Positions 17,844-63,335 of a DNA stretch of 64,000 bases are shown piece after piece. The position numbers and the translations under genes are program-made. The notes under the pieces were generated by a model. The model was not told the origin of the DNA and ran no database searches. It worked only from the letters and a program-made list of their open reading frames with translations. The DNA is taken from the sequence record OZ413487.1. One strand, 5' to 3'. This DNA comes from a phage. Position 1 is the stretch's first letter. The number at the start of each line of letters is the position of its first letter.

Positions 17844-18107
17844 ATGAAACGTCTTGATCAGCTCAAATTAGTTCAATATATGGCTTATCGTGTTCTTGAA
17901 GTCCAGAAAGGTAGCAAAAAAGAGGTTTGCGAGAAAGCTTATAAGATCTTCACTCGCAAAAAAGATGACTGGATGCTACGCCAGACTAAAAAGGCTGACA
18001 TCTTGGGGTACCTGGAAGAAGAGATCCGCCTTGAAGAGCAAGAAGAGATCCGCCGTAGTGAGGCAGATTATCAGGCAGCTTGGGAAAACTGGATGAGCAA
18101 CAAATAA
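17844..18107 (+). CDS. hypothetical protein
   Basis: 87 aa; AAGAGG SD; K/E-rich. Confidence 0.55.
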   Translation: MKRLDQLKLVQYMAYRVLEVQKGSKKEVCEKAYKIFTRKKDDWMLRQTKKADILGYLEEEIRLEEQEEIRRSEADYQAAWENWMSNK

Positions 18108-18126
18108 TACAACAAGGTGCACGGTC

Positions 18127-18151
18127 AGGGGCTTAAAGCCCCTTTCTTTTT
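18127..18151 (+). terminator. rho-independent terminator
   Basis: aggggc-ttaa-agcccct hairpin then TTCTTTTT. Confidence 0.65.
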
Positions 18152-19019
18152 GTCTCCTCTTTTCCTACCACAAATGGCCCCGCCTGGCAAATGGAATAAT
18201 CAACAAGCCAGCAATTAACCCCACTGTACAAACATACATATAAAATAACTATTGCATAATTTTTCATTGTGTGGTAGCAGTGCCATTTTTACACGTTTTT
18301 CCTTCCAAAATTGCACGTAATGCAGCATTTGCACAAAATTTAACCTGATGCATATCTTCAATAGCTTGTCAACAACTAAAAATCTTTATAAGTCATACAC
18401 TTACATAACTACAAAAACGTTTTCTACGTGAAAAATCGAGTATAACTATAGCCGCCAGATCTCAGAATTTACGTACGCTCGCCATTCTATAGCCTGCTAA
18501 GCATTTATTCCAACCATAGAATAACGGAATAGTCAATACCTGCATAAAATAATTATTCGTGTAAACTGCATAACATAAATCGGCCCAGGTGTCAACATTT
18601 TTCGTAAACAGTCTGGAATTGTCACGTTAGGTTACCATAAGCAGAGAAATCTTTAGTCGTCTAATGTTTACTGTACATTACTATACTGACTGGAATCATT
18701 AGATGACTAAGAGAAAGATAAGAAATAATTAATAATGTAATTATTTTACCTGTAACAATAAGGCAACTATGCAAACGAATGGCATGGCGCGACGGAGTCG
18801 CGACATAATATAAAAGCAGTAACCATCACCCCCGTGATAGTTTGTCTGCAAACTATTAATCAGATCATAGTTGCCTTGTATTTAGTTAATCATGACATGA
18901 CAAGCAAGGCAACTATAGATCTGCTAATAGTTGCCCTGCTTTTATATTATGTCATGCTAATTATAATCAGTGCGATTATTGTCATGTATAATTATTGTCA
19001 TGCAAACGAATGGCATGGC

Positions 19020-19160
19020 TGATTATCGGTGTGTAAACAGTCAATCATGTAAATGGTTAGCATGTGAACAATCAGGAATGTAAACAATCCAGTGTGTAAA
19101 CTAATAGGTGTGTAAAAGTGTCATGTTGTGTCAGTTAGGTCACATTATGTCAGACAAGTT
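19020..19160. repeat. iteron-like array of (g)tgtaaac(a) motifs
   Basis: At least six tgtaaaca/tgtgaaca/gtgtaaaa variants within about 140 bp, flanked by 18-bp direct repeats gcaaacgaatggcatggc at 18771 and 19002. Confidence 0.5.
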
Positions 19161-19395
19161 TTTCTCCTCTTTGTCAAGTGCTGCATGAAAAATTTACAAG
19201 CTTGTATGGTAGCATTTTTGCGGCCCTGTTTACATTCAGTAATGTATGTATAATCCTTGTTGTGTGGGCGTTTAGACGTCTAGACGGTTGGAAGTCCACA
19301 GGTCAATATCTAATCTATCGGCTGCTAACTATATCCCACACAAATAGTAAGAAATATGATTGTTATATGCGTAAACTGTAACTCATGTTATCAAT

Positions 19396-19765
19396 CCCTG
19401 TATGGATCGCCAGTGGTGCGCATAATAGGTATTATGTTAAATTGCCCGTAATGATAACAGTTCTCACAATGATAGGTATTCTCATTCATCCACACAAAAT
19501 AGGTTGCAAATGTTGTGCCACTGTGTGAACGGCCTGGCCTATTAATTTCTCTCACTGCCTCGATATTTGAGAATTGTTATCCCTGTATGGATCGCCAGTG
19601 GTGCGCATAATAGGTATTATGTTAAATTGCCCGTAATGATAACAGTTCTCACAATGATAGGTATTCTCATTCATCCACACAAAATAGGTTGCAAATGTTG
19701 TGCCACTGTGTGAACGGCCTGGCCTATTAATTTCTCTCACTGCCTCGATATTTGAGAATTGTTAT
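19396..19765. repeat. perfect tandem duplication, 2 x 185 bp
   Basis: Unit ccctgtatgg...gagaattgttat at 19396-19580 repeats identically at 19581-19765. Confidence 0.85.
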
Positions 19766-20823
19766 AAGAATGAGAAGTATTCCCATTCCGTCCGCCTGGC
19801 AGCACTCCTGTAGGTCCTGCAAGGACTCTAGCTGAAAGCTAGACCCTTCGGGCCTCCCTGTAGGTCAGGTCAAAATCGTGGTAGAATTGGGCCTGTTCAG
19901 ATATTTCTGGCTGACTCTTCAGGTCTGTGTGGGAAAAGCCAACCTCTCCGGCGGGGCAGGGGGTCATGACGGGAAAATTGCAGGTCAATTAAAAAATTTA
20001 CGTGGTGTATGAAGCGCTCTTCAGGTAAGGCATGTATTATGGGATGAAACCCTCTTCAGGCAATGATATTTGTGGGTGTGATATTTGCTGGAAAGCCAGA
20101 TATGACGGGACTCCCGGCGGGGATGGGGTAGTACAGACAGGGAAAATATGAGAATGTAGTTGGGGAAATTGATCAGACAGGTAGAGTATGGAATATGTTA
20201 CAAGTATGTTAAATATGGAGGTTGAATATCTGTAGGATTTGTGTGTAAAATCAAAGACTTAAGGGGTGTTGTGGTATTTTCTATAAATAATTCAAGTTTA
20301 ATAGGCAATATTTGTCTCTATCCGCTTTGTGTGGTAAACAGATTCAGATTAGATTGGTTTACAAGTGTATACATAATATACAAATTAAAGATACAAGAAA
20401 CCCCCCTCCCCCTTCGGCTACCATTCACCTTTTCCTCTGACTGGTACTTAAACACTTATTCAGACTCTTCAGGTTATCACCCATATATCATATGGCAGTG
20501 ACTGGTGTCCTCCGGCCCCTCTTTCGTCACCCGTCCGCTTCGCCATGCTAATGCCATAGCCAATGGTTCGGTTGTTCACTCTGTTCACTCAGGTGTATCT
20601 CCATACCCCTTCAAACCGAAGAGAACAGAAAACCCGAATTACTCGGTAAAAGAAAAGAGAAGAACTTAATTTTATCAGGATAGGCAAGAATGTCAAGGCA
20701 TGACTGCTCACTAAACAAGCAAACAGTCATGTGTGGAAGGTAAGTGATTGTGGTGGTGGGAAATTTAGTTGAAAGATGTGTTATAGGTGCTCCCAGCACT
20801 TTAGCCGGGTAGCTAATTGTGTG

Positions 20824-50250: not shown

Positions 50251-51386
50251 ATTGCTCCAACATTTCTAAGAACGTTAACAAGTTTTGTTTGATCATTGAA
50301 TGTTCGCTTCATATACAAACAGTCAAAAATTATACTCATCCATTGACCTACGGAAATTCTACGATCAACACCATTGAAGTCAGTATACTTAACAACACCT
50401 TTCGGGAACCACTTCTTGTACTGATCAATAATAGCCACCCACATCTCCTTTGGAGTGCTGCACTGAGACAGTAGGTAGAATGCTGAGGCATCTCCGAACT
50501 TACCCTTACCGATAAGTCCCTGATACGGCTTGATGTTGTCAGCAGAGTCACCACACAGCATTTGGTATCCGAAGAACAGCATTCCGTAACCACCAACCTC
50601 TCCATTAGGCTTCATGAAGATGTTCCCCATACCGTTATCGATCAGCATAGGGGTTTCTCTTACAAAATCTCCCTTATCGTTTCGCATGGGATCGAACACA
50701 AGCCCCGGTAGTGTTCTTTGGTCCTTATCAATAGAGATAATAAACTTGTTGAACTTACCTGTTTTTTGGTAGTGGTTCCAACCTTCAAATTGCTGGATAG
50801 CTAACCAGTCGTCAGCCTCGATACCGTTGATCACTTGAGCATTATACTGCTTTTGGAGATACTGTCTTGCATCTCCAAGCAGCAGTGGTCGAAGAGTATT
50901 GTTACGGTTGGCTTTATATCTTTCCGGCATGGGAAGATCTAGTCTGAAATTACCTGTGCCTCCAAGTACCCCCACGCACCGATCTTCCGGAATACCGAGA
51001 TAATTAAGGACTGCATTAGCTTTACACTTAATTGTGTGCAAGCAGTTCTCTACAGGATCAGGGGTTTGGATATCCAAGACATCGAAATCTTCTCGTGTCC
51101 ACGGAATAAACTCCTTGCCAGCCTTTTTACATGCAGCTTCACGGTTGGTATTCTCAGCTTTTAACCAACCACCAACGGTGTTCTTCTGCCGCCCCCAGAA
51201 CTCTGTTCGTGTTTTAAACATCTTCTTACGTCCGGAGGCTTTGTGTGTTACCTCAATTGTCCTTTTTTCACAACTTGCTGCAGCTTGATATGCAACCTGA
51301 TCGAAGTCATAATAAACTATAGCGTCAGGTTCAAGAAGATCAGCCAGACAATCTATGGACTCAATAAGTGGATATTCTCTACTCAA
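50247..51386 (-). CDS. 5'-3' exonuclease / flap endonuclease (RNase H-like, FEN family)
   Basis: 379 aa; GIEADDWLA and GDSADNIKPYQGLIGKGK match FEN motifs GVEADDMAA / GDLGDNIRGVEGIGAKRG; TTG start after AGGAGGG SD. Confidence 0.7.
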   Translation of the reverse strand: MSREYPLIESIDCLADLLEPDAIVYYDFDQVAYQAAASCEKRTIEVTHKASGRKKMFKTRTEFWGRQKNTVGGWLKAENTNREAACKKAGKEFIPWTREDFDVLDIQTPDPVENCLHTIKCKANAVLNYLGIPEDRCVGVLGGTGNFRLDLPMPERYKANRNNTLRPLLLGDARQYLQKQYNAQVINGIEADDWLAIQQFEGWNHYQKTGKFNKFIISIDKDQRTLPGLVFDPMRNDKGDFVRETPMLIDNGMGNIFMKPNGEVGGYGMLFFGYQMLCGDSADNIKPYQGLIGKGKFGDASAFYLLSQCSTPKEMWVAIIDQYKKWFPKGVVKYTDFNGVDRRISVGQWMSIIFDCLYMKRTFNDQTKLVNVLRNVGAI

Positions 51387-58801: not shown

Positions 58802-58830
58802 TTGAAATTAACAAAACAGTTAGGTATACT
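58802..58830 (+). promoter_or_regulatory. sigma70-like promoter (divergent from rnlA)
   Basis: TTGAAA-N17-TATACT; track ORF start 58802 is this -35 box. Confidence 0.5.
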
Positions 58831-58858
58831 ATCGTTGAAATTAAAACGGAGTATTACT

Positions 58859-59269
58859 ATGTCTAAAATGCTATATATCGTGCGTGGTCTACCAGGGTCT
58901 GGCAAATCAACACTGGCAAATGCGCTATCTTTAGAAGGTCTGTATCCACATTTTGAGAACGACATGTTCTGGTACGACGATGATGGAAATTACAACTGGG
59001 ATGCAAGTAAAGTAACACTTGCAGCAAAATGGTGCAAAGATAACGTAGAAGATATGATGCGTATGGGATACGACCGTATCGTGGTAAGTAATACGTTTAC
59101 AAAAGAAAAATATGTGCAAGAATATATTGACATGGCGATCAGTCATGGGTATAGTTATACCGTGATCGTGGTTGAAAACCGCCATGGTAATAAAAGCATT
59201 CATGATGTTCCAGACAGGGTTGTGGATCGTATGGAACGCCAGCTTAAAAACTGCATTAAACTTAAATGA
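58859..59269 (+). CDS. polynucleotide 5'-kinase-like P-loop kinase
   Basis: 136 aa; GLPGSGKST Walker A, VVSNTFT, HDVPDRVVDRM parallel the T4 Pnk kinase domain (GCPGSGKST, ISDTNL, VPIDVLRSM). Confidence 0.6.
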   Translation: MSKMLYIVRGLPGSGKSTLANALSLEGLYPHFENDMFWYDDDGNYNWDASKVTLAAKWCKDNVEDMMRMGYDRIVVSNTFTKEKYVQEYIDMAISHGYSYTVIVVENRHGNKSIHDVPDRVVDRMERQLKNCIKLK

Positions 59270-59276
59270 GGAATGT

Positions 59277-59831
59277 ATGAAATACTTTGTAACAAGCGAC
59301 ACACACTTTCTCCACCAGCGGGTCATGGAGTTCGATTCATGTCAAAAACACAGATCTCAGTATGATCACAATCTTGACAGTATGAATGCGGGAATCATCG
59401 CCGAGTGGAACTCTGTTGTGTCACCTGCAGACACTGTGTTCCACTTGGGAGATATTGCGTGCACTAATGATAAGAATATCAACAACTTACTTCCAGATAT
59501 TCTAAATATGTTGAACGGACATATTATTCTTGTTCGTGGCAACCATGACACAAGGACGACTGTCAGAATTATGAAAGAGTTCGGTCATGAGGTTGTAGAT
59601 TATTACGAGCTTCGCCACAACAAGAATTTGATCTGTATGAGCCATTACCAATTTGCAAAGTGGAACAGAAAGCCTCACGGATCAGTCCAACTGTTCGGTC
59701 ATGCTCACGGAACCACACAACAGTTGTTTGGCAGGCAGCTTGATGTCGGTTGGGATGTGTGGGGGAGACTCTTACCATTAGAAGAGGCATACCGTATTGC
59801 AATGAGTTTTGCTATTGACAGCGGGGAGTAA
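59277..59831 (+). CDS. calcineurin-like metallophosphoesterase
   Basis: ATG 59277 after GAGGAA SD; FHLGDI, RGNHD, GHAHG metal-ligand motifs. Confidence 0.7.
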   Translation: MKYFVTSDTHFLHQRVMEFDSCQKHRSQYDHNLDSMNAGIIAEWNSVVSPADTVFHLGDIACTNDKNINNLLPDILNMLNGHIILVRGNHDTRTTVRIMKEFGHEVVDYYELRHNKNLICMSHYQFAKWNRKPHGSVQLFGHAHGTTQQLFGRQLDVGWDVWGRLLPLEEAYRIAMSFAIDSGE

Positions 59832-59878
59832 TCCCTGCTATTTTAAAGAAAATTGCCACACAAGGAGAATCAGGAGAT

Positions 59879-60229
59879 ATGAAAGATGGGGATAAGCTGC
59901 TATATCTTAAAGTCCCCCTTGAAATACTGTCTATGTCAAAAGTTTTGAATGACACAACTGGAGAGGTTGTTGTTCTTGACTTGTATGACAAGATCGTATA
60001 CTGCTACCTGCACAACTGGTATAAGCTTGGAGGAAATTCACGCTTCACACCCAGCACAAGGAAAATTGCAGCAGATGTTGGGATAAAGAAAACAAAAGCA
60101 GCAGCGTGCGTTAAAACTTTAGAGTGTGCAGGGGTGGTTGAAACATCCACACAAGGGAGAGGTAAAAGATGCACATTTTCCAAAGTTTTGCCACCAGAAG
60201 AAGTTATTCGGATGTCAACAACTGGTTAG
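59879..60229 (+). CDS. hypothetical protein (possible DNA-binding)
   Basis: 116 aa; AAGGAGA..GGAGA SD; immediately upstream of palindromic site array. Confidence 0.5.
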   Translation: MKDGDKLLYLKVPLEILSMSKVLNDTTGEVVVLDLYDKIVYCYLHNWYKLGGNSRFTPSTRKIAADVGIKKTKAAACVKTLECAGVVETSTQGRGKRCTFSKVLPPEEVIRMSTTG

Positions 60230-60299
60230 ACCAGTAAAAACTTAAATATCTGTACTATAAGGATTCGTATGTTTTATGTTCGCCATGGAACGGATACTA

Positions 60300-60386
60300 T
60301 TAACTGTCCGTGATACGGACACTACTGTCCGTCACGCGGACACATCTGCCCGTAATACGGACACTAACTGTCCGTGATACGGACAC
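60300..60386. promoter_or_regulatory. array of four phased palindromic sites GTCCG-N5-CGGAC
   Basis: Sites at 60306, 60327, 60348, 60370 (gtccgtgatacggac x2, gtccgtcacgcggac, gcccgtaatacggac), spacing 21-22 bp. Confidence 0.6.
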
Positions 60387-60889
60387 ATAAAGAATATAAC
60401 TAAAATAACTAAATAATAAAAAATAAAAGATCTAGTACTTATGGTACTAAGTACATATACTTAACTTATGTAGAATATACTAGATCCTAAGTACCATGTT
60501 TTAAATTTATTACTTACTATGGGCAGTGTCGGCCCTTCATTGGCACTCGCCTACGAGGGGCGAGATGCCGTGCCTCCTTGGTGTACACAATAACAGAAGT
60601 GCATACATGCAGGTCTGTTAACATGTGTGGGAGCGAAGCGATAGCGCAGGCCAAAGGCCGAGCACTGCTGTGGACCACCGACGAAAGCTTGCCAGCGCCG
60701 TAAGGAGTCGGTTGAGAGTCTCCCGCGCGAGCTTGGATGAAGTTTATGTGTGGAAACTGACAAGAAGGTCCCTAAATCGCTCCACAGCCATGTAAACTAT
60801 ACCAAGTAAGGCAATCGCACCAGTTTGATAGAAAAGCTCGTTACAAAGCGATACAGTGAGTTTTTCTATAACTTGAAGAGGAGGCAGCT

Positions 60890-61468
60890 ATGAGTCCACG
60901 CAAAGATGACCGTGAAAAGATTGCAAAACGTTATCAGAATGAAGAACAGATGGAGAAAACTTTCAAGTGGAAGCCAGGTTTCCAGCGTAATCATTCTAAC
61001 GCTCGTGATCGTAAGCATCCGGATAAGTGGTTAACACCGCCAAATGATGGCATGCAGGTTGGGGATGAGAAGGAGCTGTCACCTGGAAAAGATGGCAACT
61101 ACATTCGCACTAAGGAAGCAGGTCCAAAGGATGACAGCTATCTTGTAGATAAGGTTCTTGATGGTATTGATGTAGATGTTGACACTGCACGAAACCTTTT
61201 TCTTGGTTGGTATCGTACAGGGTTTTTCGACATCAAGGCTATTCGTCGTGTTTGTGATATTAAAAAGTCTGCATATGATGATGACTCTCTACATCGCACT
61301 CTGAGACAATGCTCAGAGAGATACGGTCATCCAGTTATCACTCTTGACGATATTAACGAAGTGATGTATCATGCAGAGGTTGTTGCAGGTAGATTCGGTG
61401 ATGCATATCTCGGTATTCTTTCTGCAAAAGATGAGGTAATGTTAAATAAAATTTACTATGAACGCTGA
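60890..61468 (+). CDS. hypothetical protein
   Basis: 192 aa; GAAGAGGAGG SD; preceded by about 350 nt GC-rich leader. Confidence 0.55.
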   Translation: MSPRKDDREKIAKRYQNEEQMEKTFKWKPGFQRNHSNARDRKHPDKWLTPPNDGMQVGDEKELSPGKDGNYIRTKEAGPKDDSYLVDKVLDGIDVDVDTARNLFLGWYRTGFFDIKAIRRVCDIKKSAYDDDSLHRTLRQCSERYGHPVITLDDINEVMYHAEVVAGRFGDAYLGILSAKDEVMLNKIYYER

Positions 61469-63236: not shown

Positions 63237-63335
63237 GCTAGGTAAGCCCTTTGGCAAGGGCGAGGATTTTTAATCCTGAAAATAGACGAGGTAGTCGTTG
63301 AATACATAGGTGGTTCGATTCCATCACCTAGCACC
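63237..63335 (+). tRNA. atypical tRNA-like element (possible tRNA-Lys TTT with long insertion, or pseudo-tRNA)
   Basis: Perfect 7-bp acceptor gctaggt/acctagc, good D-arm and T-arm (TTCGATT), but weak anticodon stem and about 30-nt insert before T-arm; no complete CCA. Confidence 0.3.

Follow-up and report, generated by a model that had tools for sequence, protein, structure and literature searches.

The 64,000-nucleotide stretch of phage DNA in sequence record OZ413487.1 (hereafter the window) carries, within positions 60300-60386, an array of four palindromic sites that we read as the iteron-type replication origin of the Vequintavirus (rV5-like) phages, bound by a small plasmid-type initiator encoded just upstream; judged from sequence, this reading is probable, at roughly 0.6. 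We document here the anatomy of the locus, the purifying selection acting on it, the homology of its protein and the same design in three genera, and that design is a classical origin design, not a new kind of element. An origin is favored because the protein is related to RepA_N initiators, because the least stable duplex of the genome abuts the array, because there is no consensus promoter at the array and no other site in the genome, and because the terminase gene lies 4.4 kb away and partition ATPases are absent from the annotations of this region. Winged-helix initiators acting at iteron origins are textbook material; the assignment of this origin is new, the feature that departs from the known families is a putative initiator reduced to its DNA-binding domain, and our literature search found no description of this origin. 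Positions 59800-60900 match 119 phage genomes at 88-99.6% identity, most of them labelled Escherichia phages, and the inspected records belong to the genus Vequintavirus (rV5-like myoviruses of ~136 kb). The features of the locus are as follows.

59815-59844, plus strand: promoter ahead of the winged-helix gene, of sigma-70 type and extended by TG (TTGACA-18-TATTTT), 10/12 consensus matches, annotated P76 in the rV5 record
59879-60229, plus strand: gene for the 116-amino-acid winged-helix protein, a putative origin-binding protein corresponding to a RepA_N-type N-terminal domain only
60281-60304, no strand: hypervariable 24-nt spacer forming the left boundary of the conserved core, 15/24 positions vary (62%)
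60305-60321, no strand: putative iteron 1, TGTCCGTGATACGGACA
60326-60342, no strand: putative iteron 2, TGTCCGTCACGCGGACA
60347-60363, no strand: putative iteron 3, TGCCCGTAATACGGACA, one mismatch to GTCCG-N5-CGGAC, C at position 3 kept in every relative
60369-60385, no strand: putative iteron 4, TGTCCGTGATACGGACA, identical to iteron 1
60386-60516, no strand: AT-rich putative DNA-unwinding element, 20% GC, least stable duplex, 7-11% variable
60420-60432, minus strand: sole exact match in the window to the Escherichia coli oriC 13-mer consensus GATCTnTTnTTTT
60517-60790, plus strand: GC-rich conserved non-coding segment adjoining the AT-rich tract, 58-65% GC (60520-60730)

Anatomy and conservation of the array

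Direct reading of the sequence revealed four palindromic sites at the place where the original prediction, made from this DNA alone, had described four 15-bp inverted repeats of the form GTCCG-N5-CGGAC. Three of these are perfect (exact matches at 60306, 60327 and 60370), whereas the third site departs from that form by one mismatch, and the symmetry is longer than had been described, spanning 17 bp as TGTCCGT-N3-ACGGACA with starts at 60305, 60326, 60347 and 60369; in a scan allowing up to three mismatches, sites 1 to 4 differed from this longer form at 0, 1, 1 and 0 positions. The spacing had been given as 21-22 bp, or two helical turns, with two of the sites identical, and measurement agreed on both counts, with start-to-start distances of 21, 21 and 22 bp, units 1 and 4 identical across 22 nt, and Tandem Repeats Finder reporting a period of 21, 4.0 copies and a score of 110. 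The array also lies just after the open reading frame at 59879-60229, as had been noted, and begins 75 nt past its stop codon.

A search of the genome for further sites had been proposed as a check, and it returned none: exact GTCCG-N5-CGGAC occurs nowhere else in the window, and a whole-genome scan of the sister genome JohannBauhin (MZ501083; 135.6 kb, 99.6% identical) found full sites only at this locus, the best other candidate having two mismatches. Not one of 100 dinucleotide shuffles gave even a single exact match. The array is real, unique and far beyond chance. Its half-site centres are 11 bp apart and its sites two helical turns apart by direct reading, so that a dimer would contact two successive major grooves and four dimers would sit on one DNA face.

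To evaluate conservation, we aligned the region from the start of the gene to the end of the next gene across 12 distinct sequences, comprising GenBank relatives and metagenomic contigs with proteins 89-99% identical. A lack of conservation in related phages had been named as counting against the prediction, and the alignment revealed invariant arms (0/48 positions variable) and invariant linkers (0/13), for a combined 0/61, with changes within the sites confined to their central 5 nt (4/20). The third codon positions of the two flanking genes varied at 32% and 27%, and the AT-rich tract right of the array at 7-11%. At the third-codon rate, the chance of all 61 positions staying unchanged would be ~0.7^61, or ~4e-10 by simple arithmetic, and the site arms are under strong purifying selection. 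A more divergent metagenomic contig (L011) carries one arm change, TGCCCG in site 1, which is the variant always found in site 3, and an ortholog of 70% identity keeps TGTCCGTCACACGGACA, with the next site starting 21 bp later.

Two side observations concern the edges of this conserved block. Variation in the spacer at 60281-60304 takes the form of a few discrete haplotypes, one of which holds a small palindrome, CTCTGGAACAGAG. Also, four independent Logan metagenomic contigs (L011, L017, L018 and L020) have ends inside the array, which probably reflects assembly-graph branching where an invariant block meets hypervariable flanks in mixed populations, and less probably a real DNA end.

Right of the array, the base composition follows the predicted order of an AT-rich and then a GC-rich segment, with 20% GC from 60386 and 58-65% GC over 60520-60730. 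Nearest-neighbour duplex stability, calculated in windows of 50, 100 and 130 bp, revealed that the least stable duplex of the 64-kb window starts at 60386/60387, the base after the last site, and that the same tract is the stability minimum of the entire 135.6-kb sister genome, 4.7-5.8 standard deviations below the mean (~4.4-5.8 from the mean over window and sister genome). The tract has an A-rich top strand over 60386-60428 and then inverted repeats with two GATC sites (60429-60432 and 60483-60486), and the inverted repeats I2, I10 and I11 of our inventory lie within it. The oriC 13-mer match it contains was expected 0.13 times and appeared at least once in 11/100 shuffles, a signal that is weak alone.

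The 116-amino-acid protein and its relatives

Sequence comparison and structural modelling show that the protein encoded at 59879-60229 has a winged-helix fold and is a homolog of the DNA-binding N-terminal domain of RepA from PLE, a phage satellite of Vibrio cholerae. It falls in PHROG 12838, 'replication initiation protein' (E = 5e-80), and shows weak similarity to the leading ~100 positions of several initiator PHROGs that are much longer, with the best PDB sequence match being 4RO3 (E = 3e-6 from the single sequence and 1.5e-10 from a six-sequence profile). Single-sequence AlphaFold2 gave an unusable model (predicted local distance difference test, pLDDT, 39), and we instead used one built from a 14-homolog alignment (pLDDT 82, predicted template modelling score 0.76), in which the winged helix is preceded by a helix and a small beta-hairpin. 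Foldseek against the PDB placed chains of 4RO3 (template modelling score 0.62), 5KBJ (the pTZ2162 RepA-DNA complex), 4PQL (pSK41 RepA) and 4PT7, all RepA_N initiators, in its top five rows, and generic winged-helix regulators rank after them. The closest of these, 4RO3, represents the N-terminal domain of an initiator, V. cholerae PLE RepA, which is required for PLE replication and binds a semi-palindromic repeat in the PLE origin, the repeat itself being required as well (electrophoretic mobility shift assay and deletion analysis), and which was placed in the RepA_N family on structural grounds, having no BLASTP similarity to other RepA_N proteins (PMC7145576).

The strongest comparative argument comes from outside the genus. 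With the syntenic phosphoesterase as a landmark, we examined the surrounding sequence in two other Vequintavirinae. Erwinia phage Hena1 encodes a 122-amino-acid winged-helix homolog (hhalign against the family profile, E = 6e-6; PHROG hits to a DnaD-like loader and replication initiators) whose start codon abuts three copies of TTATTCCC-N3-CGGGTATA. After these repeats comes an AT-rich tract with a GATC palindrome, which over 50-100 bp is the least stable part of the 8.5-kb locus (repeats and tract at L008, 2690-2870). Cronobacter phage EspYZU08 encodes a homolog of 105 amino acids (hhalign E = 2.6e-13; minus strand, L009 2136-2453), unannotated in its record, which belongs to PHROG 8102 ('replication initiation protein') and aligns with no more than positions 9-113 of the 337 in that profile. 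Next to it stand two copies of AGCCTAnnCTCAAATTGATA, 23 bp apart, with a local stability minimum directly after the repeats that is again AT-rich with a GATC palindrome (L009, 2467-2610). Thus all three genera possess a small protein of 105-122 amino acids made of the N-terminal domain only, adjoining tandem repeats of differing sequence, and an AT tract that starts from the last repeat. As the repeats change with the protein while the architecture stays, the comparison argues for binding of the repeats by the protein and for the AT tract as a part of one device with them.

Among known systems, the closest likeness is to the RepA_N-type theta replicons (pSK41 and pTZ2162 of Staphylococcus aureus, and PLE), which share with the phage locus a winged-helix N-terminal domain of ~116-120 amino acids and semi-palindromic direct repeats, and whose solved members closest to the phage protein bind their semi-palindromic iterons as dimers. 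In pSK41, the N-terminal domain of Rep (120 amino acids) binds four Rep boxes, which lie within the gene immediately past the coding sequence of that domain, and Rep is reported to bend DNA by ~30 degrees per box; the linker encoded by the origin is dispensable, and the C-terminal domain is essential and binds DnaG (PMC5703833). The four boxes of the phage have the same placement relative to the coding sequence of the domain, so that the phage locus looks, in sequence terms, like a pSK41-type rep gene that ends after its DNA-binding domain, with four boxes just past the stop codon. PLE offers a further parallel in its setting, as its replication depends on the SF1B (superfamily 1B) helicase of its helper phage and the phages here have an SF1B-type helicase of their own. 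The differences are that the phage protein stops after the N-terminal domain and has neither linker nor C-terminal domain, that the phage boxes lie outside the gene and have no A-tract at their centre, a feature that RepA_N iterons typically show, that Pfam RepA_N does not match the protein, and that the host replicon is a 136-kb lytic myovirus and not a plasmid or satellite.

Other classical origins share parts of this layout. The lambda origin, read directly, has four dyad-symmetric 18-bp iterons with starts 20, 24 and 23 bp apart, followed by an A-rich tract; like the phage locus, it has iterons of 17-19 bp about two turns apart, a directly adjoining tract with the same strand rich in A, a palindrome beyond that tract, transcription through the region and an initiator (O) with an N-terminal winged-helix DNA-binding domain. 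In contrast to the array, it lies inside the O gene, the C-terminal domain of O recruits P-DnaB, and the phage has an AT-rich tract roughly three times as long, with a 270-bp GC-rich block after it. BLASTP found no similarity between the 116-amino-acid protein and lambda O (E = 0.29 over 18 residues), the next gene (192 amino acids) has no recognisable domain, and no P-type helicase loader was seen adjoining. The Gram-negative iteron plasmids (RK2 oriV/TrfA, P1, F, pSC101 and R6K) have the same succession of an initiator-site array, an AT-rich element with GATC and a GC-rich flank, of which the GC-rich region of RK2 is reportedly an example; they also have oriC-type 13-mers in the AT-rich element, where the single 13-mer of the phage may be a chance match. 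They differ in that no Rep_3 domain (Pfam) and no nearby DnaA box occur here, and in that Rep_3 iterons are asymmetric and bound by monomers whereas the phage sites are palindromes, presumably bound by dimers.

The family itself is almost confined to the genus, as judged by tblastn and two very large protein searches (word-indexed and exhaustive), and an IMG/VR scan with the 116-amino-acid protein found no relatives. Profile search alone reached distant homologs of 182-195 amino acids; in their contigs the gene follows a divergent intergenic region near DnaB-type and PolA genes, and no clear iteron array was found there. Four of these homologs (P0009, P0014, P0017 and P0019; 194-195 amino acids) have an acidic C-terminal tail ending in -PF (DCDEAPF in P0009, DTGEPF in P0014), and P0011 (217 amino acids) ends in DPDAPF. 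These tails resemble the C-terminal tip of the single-stranded DNA-binding protein SSB. The P0014 gene (loci L022/L023) follows a divergent intergenic region and is flanked by genes for DnaB/Toprim and PolA. Records of the Vequintavirus gene carry conflicting names, namely 'transcriptional regulator', 'DNA-binding protein', 'replication initiation protein', 'DsrC like protein' and 'hypothetical protein'.

We also considered a split initiator, in which the downstream 192-amino-acid protein would be the missing C-terminal domain. This idea is unsupported: that protein has no Pfam or PDB sequence match, and a 50% homolog of it adjoins a DNA ligase gene and not a winged-helix gene.

The proposed origin weighed against other roles

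If the array is an origin, the early gene at 59879-60229 would supply a winged-helix protein of the RepA_N / PLE-RepA N-terminal-domain type, whose dimers would bind the four 17-bp palindromes on one DNA face. Bending at each site, if similar to that of pSK41, would build a curved or wrapped complex, which on supercoiled DNA would promote opening of the adjoining 130-bp AT-rich tract, perhaps aided by read-through transcription from the gene's own promoter because no terminator intervenes, and the GC-rich block beyond would limit the bubble. The phage genes include a DnaB/Toprim primase-helicase and a Pif1/RecD-like SF1B helicase. As the protein has no C-terminal recruiting domain, the replisome would have to self-load or be recruited otherwise; the primase-helicase, and possibly the SF1B helicase, would then load itself on the opened DNA or come via another factor. 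Tentatively, and with more doubt than confidence, we extend this to a minimal initiator of the Vequintavirinae, in which a RepA_N-type DNA-binding domain (105-122 amino acids, three genera) only marks and melts the origin and the helicase loads with no initiator contact, a route that is also suspected for PLE. Were this so, PLE-type RepA and the phage proteins would share a mechanism of origin activation unlike the textbook model in which the initiator recruits the helicase.

The original prediction had dimers of the upstream gene product binding cooperatively on one DNA face, and this core inference holds as far as sequence goes, on the phasing, the selection on the arms and the winged-helix homology; as a whole, the prediction is partly supported. 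Under the heading of operator-like sites it had also left the function between a repressor array, a partition or packaging site and an origin; among these, the evidence favors the origin, with a regulatory role as a lesser possibility.

The nearness of the locus to the main turning point of transcription and GC skew speaks for an origin. In JohannBauhin the locus lies at 131.9 kb, 1.5 kb right of the main point of divergent transcription (130.4 kb), from which genes run on the minus strand leftward to 93.5 kb and on the plus strand rightward through the record end to 47 kb, such that forks leaving the locus would, from the map, be co-directional with transcription over ~84 kb.

Several observations weigh against an origin. 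Cumulative GC skew turns at the divergent-transcription point, 1.5 kb from the locus, but it is inseparable from gene orientation, and the rV5 genome paper of 2013, in which skew changes coincide with transcription switches, could not place an origin (PMC3606486). No DnaA box lies nearby, the nearest TTWTNCACA being at 51264, 9 kb off. In Pfam, RepA_N (PF06970) does not match the 116-amino-acid protein at E <= 1, and DUF6945 (27.4 bits, cut-off 28) and HTH_36 (24.5 bits, cut-off 25) both fall just under threshold; an HTH_36 domain can, for its part, stand in for the RepA_N domain in the working initiator of pPR9 (PMC5703833). The protein is a DNA-binding domain only, ending ~25 residues after the wing with no C-terminal recruiting domain, and, given that the pSK41 C-terminal domain is essential, such a protein might by analogy be a regulator. 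Furthermore, CodY, MarR and other ordinary regulators have a similar winged helix, and the Hena1 and EspYZU08 repeats stand immediately before the start codon of the homolog, an arrangement that also fits autoregulation. In the window the repeats lie downstream of the gene.

These last points belong to the best-placed alternative, one we nevertheless regard as unlikely, in which the sites form an operator array and the protein is a repressor or roadblock that stops read-through into the genes from 60890, or controls a promoter hidden in the AT-rich tract, and has no role in replication. Many records do name the gene 'putative transcriptional regulator', ArsR can be added to the regulators with a similar fold, no terminator is predicted between the gene and the array, and the Hena1 and EspYZU08 repeats occupy the interval from the start codon of the homolog to the AT-rich region, where its promoter has to lie. 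However, a sigma-70-type scan of 59700-61000, with phage-specific promoter types outside its reach, found the gene's own promoter, 460 nt upstream of the array, as the only plus-strand site, and the next gene starts 500 nt away. Nor is there a regulon, as the 135.6-kb genome has no other full site, and the best relatives of the protein in both sequence and fold are replication initiators. An operator would also leave unexplained the least stable duplex attached to the array in three genera.

Far less probable is a packaging site of the pac/cosB type, bound by a winged-helix protein resembling a small terminase, or a partition site resembling a centromere. A parallel exists in lambda gpNu1, a winged-helix protein with the repeated R elements of cosB as its binding sites, the winged-helix centromere binder TubR gave a weak match (E = 0.31), and one could add the four metagenomic contigs that end inside the array and the whole Vequintavirus genome deposited as a circular 'plasmid' of an E. 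coli isolate. Yet the large terminase gene (TerL) lies ~4.4 kb downstream, past tRNA and lysis (spanin) genes, and the one P-loop gene in the vicinity (58802-59269) encodes an AAA_33 protein of the polynucleotide-kinase type, with no neighbour annotated ParA or TubZ. Among the deposited genomes listed, the locus is found at many coordinates and never at a record end, which fits permuted genomes and not ends fixed at this point; the contig ends are better explained by assembly branching, and the specific homology of the protein is to initiators.

Equally improbable is an element for replication control or competition, in which the domain-only protein would act negatively through handcuffing, titration, or exclusion of a relative or satellite with a full-length RepA-type initiator: initiators cut to the N-terminal domain do bind DNA but cannot recruit (pSK41 needs its C-terminal domain) and the closest solved relative comes from a phage satellite, but for a satellite of this kind there is no evidence in E. 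coli, the invariant sites belong to the phage itself, and a purely negative role would not need the attached AT-rich tract.

An origin at this locus would give the rV5-like phages, which are common E. coli O157 phages and candidates for therapy, a candidate origin of ~300 bp, and would extend the RepA_N / PLE-RepA origin-binding domain, in a cut-down form, to large lytic enterobacterial phages. A form with only the DNA-binding domain would help in studying how initiators of this type open DNA and engage a replisome, and the locus is a possible module for phage engineering (origin-dependent plasmids, replication reporters).

Flanking sequence and other features of the window

The locus is composed, in order, on the minus strand, of a Sir2-like gene, a small gene and an RNA ligase gene and, on the plus strand, of genes for a polynucleotide kinase and a phosphoesterase, the 116-amino-acid gene, a 660-bp non-coding stretch, the 192-amino-acid gene, then small genes and a cluster of tRNAs. 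Complete E. coli genomes contain nothing that matches the region. Existing records show the array only as 'repeat_region' or under an annotated 33-amino-acid open reading frame (60276-60377), which we reject as spurious, the part of it outside the repeats being the hypervariable spacer.

Evaluating the GC-rich block further, we found ~16% variable positions with an rV5-specific deletion set aside, an RNA fold z-score of -3.5 against shuffles, and no relatives beyond the same 119 genomes. Across 60200-60950 there was no credible Rfam family, a match to rli43 being rejected at 22.9 bits against a gathering score of 100, and RNAalifold returned no compensatory pairs in nine sequences from a set whose mean column identity of 93% leaves too little variation. 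The block may be a barrier to unwinding or a structured transcript. We rejected it as coding sequence, since its open reading frames are broken or without codon periodicity; the 56-amino-acid GTG frame annotated in some records (60625-60795) is open, but its changes are mostly non-synonymous and without codon periodicity, and it looks spurious. No Shine-Dalgarno-like sequence was seen before the start codon of either the 33- or the 56-amino-acid frame, and removing these apparently spurious small frames is a correction to current annotation.

Elsewhere in the window, positions 19394-19765 hold a perfect 185-bp x 2 tandem repeat inside a ~2.5-kb stretch (~18100-20600; 91.0-93.5 kb in MZ501083) with no annotated gene in MZ501083. 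This stretch is where transcription converges and cumulative GC skew peaks, and the second least stable duplex of the genome (window ~18632-18761) lies beside the repeat; the stretch may serve as a terminus or as a second origin, or it may be an RNA locus. A group I intron occurs at 140-375 on the plus strand (Rfam 64.7 bits, gathering score 50) and, by approximate coordinate offset, would fall near the 3' end of the DNA polymerase region annotated in MZ501083. In the same record the large terminase gene is a two-piece join.

Of the 119 matching genomes, 18 are 'Campylobacter phage' records with nearly identical sequences. CP057073.1 is a complete, circular Vequintavirus genome of 137,565 bp deposited as 'plasmid pRHB39-C03_2' from an E. 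coli cattle isolate, which suggests a carrier state or a phage carried along in culture. Finally, the tRNA cluster includes a 99-nt tRNA-like gene at 63237-63335 (Rfam 35.5 bits) to which ARAGORN assigns a four-base anticodon (atcc), and which other records label tRNA-Lys or tRNA-OTHER.

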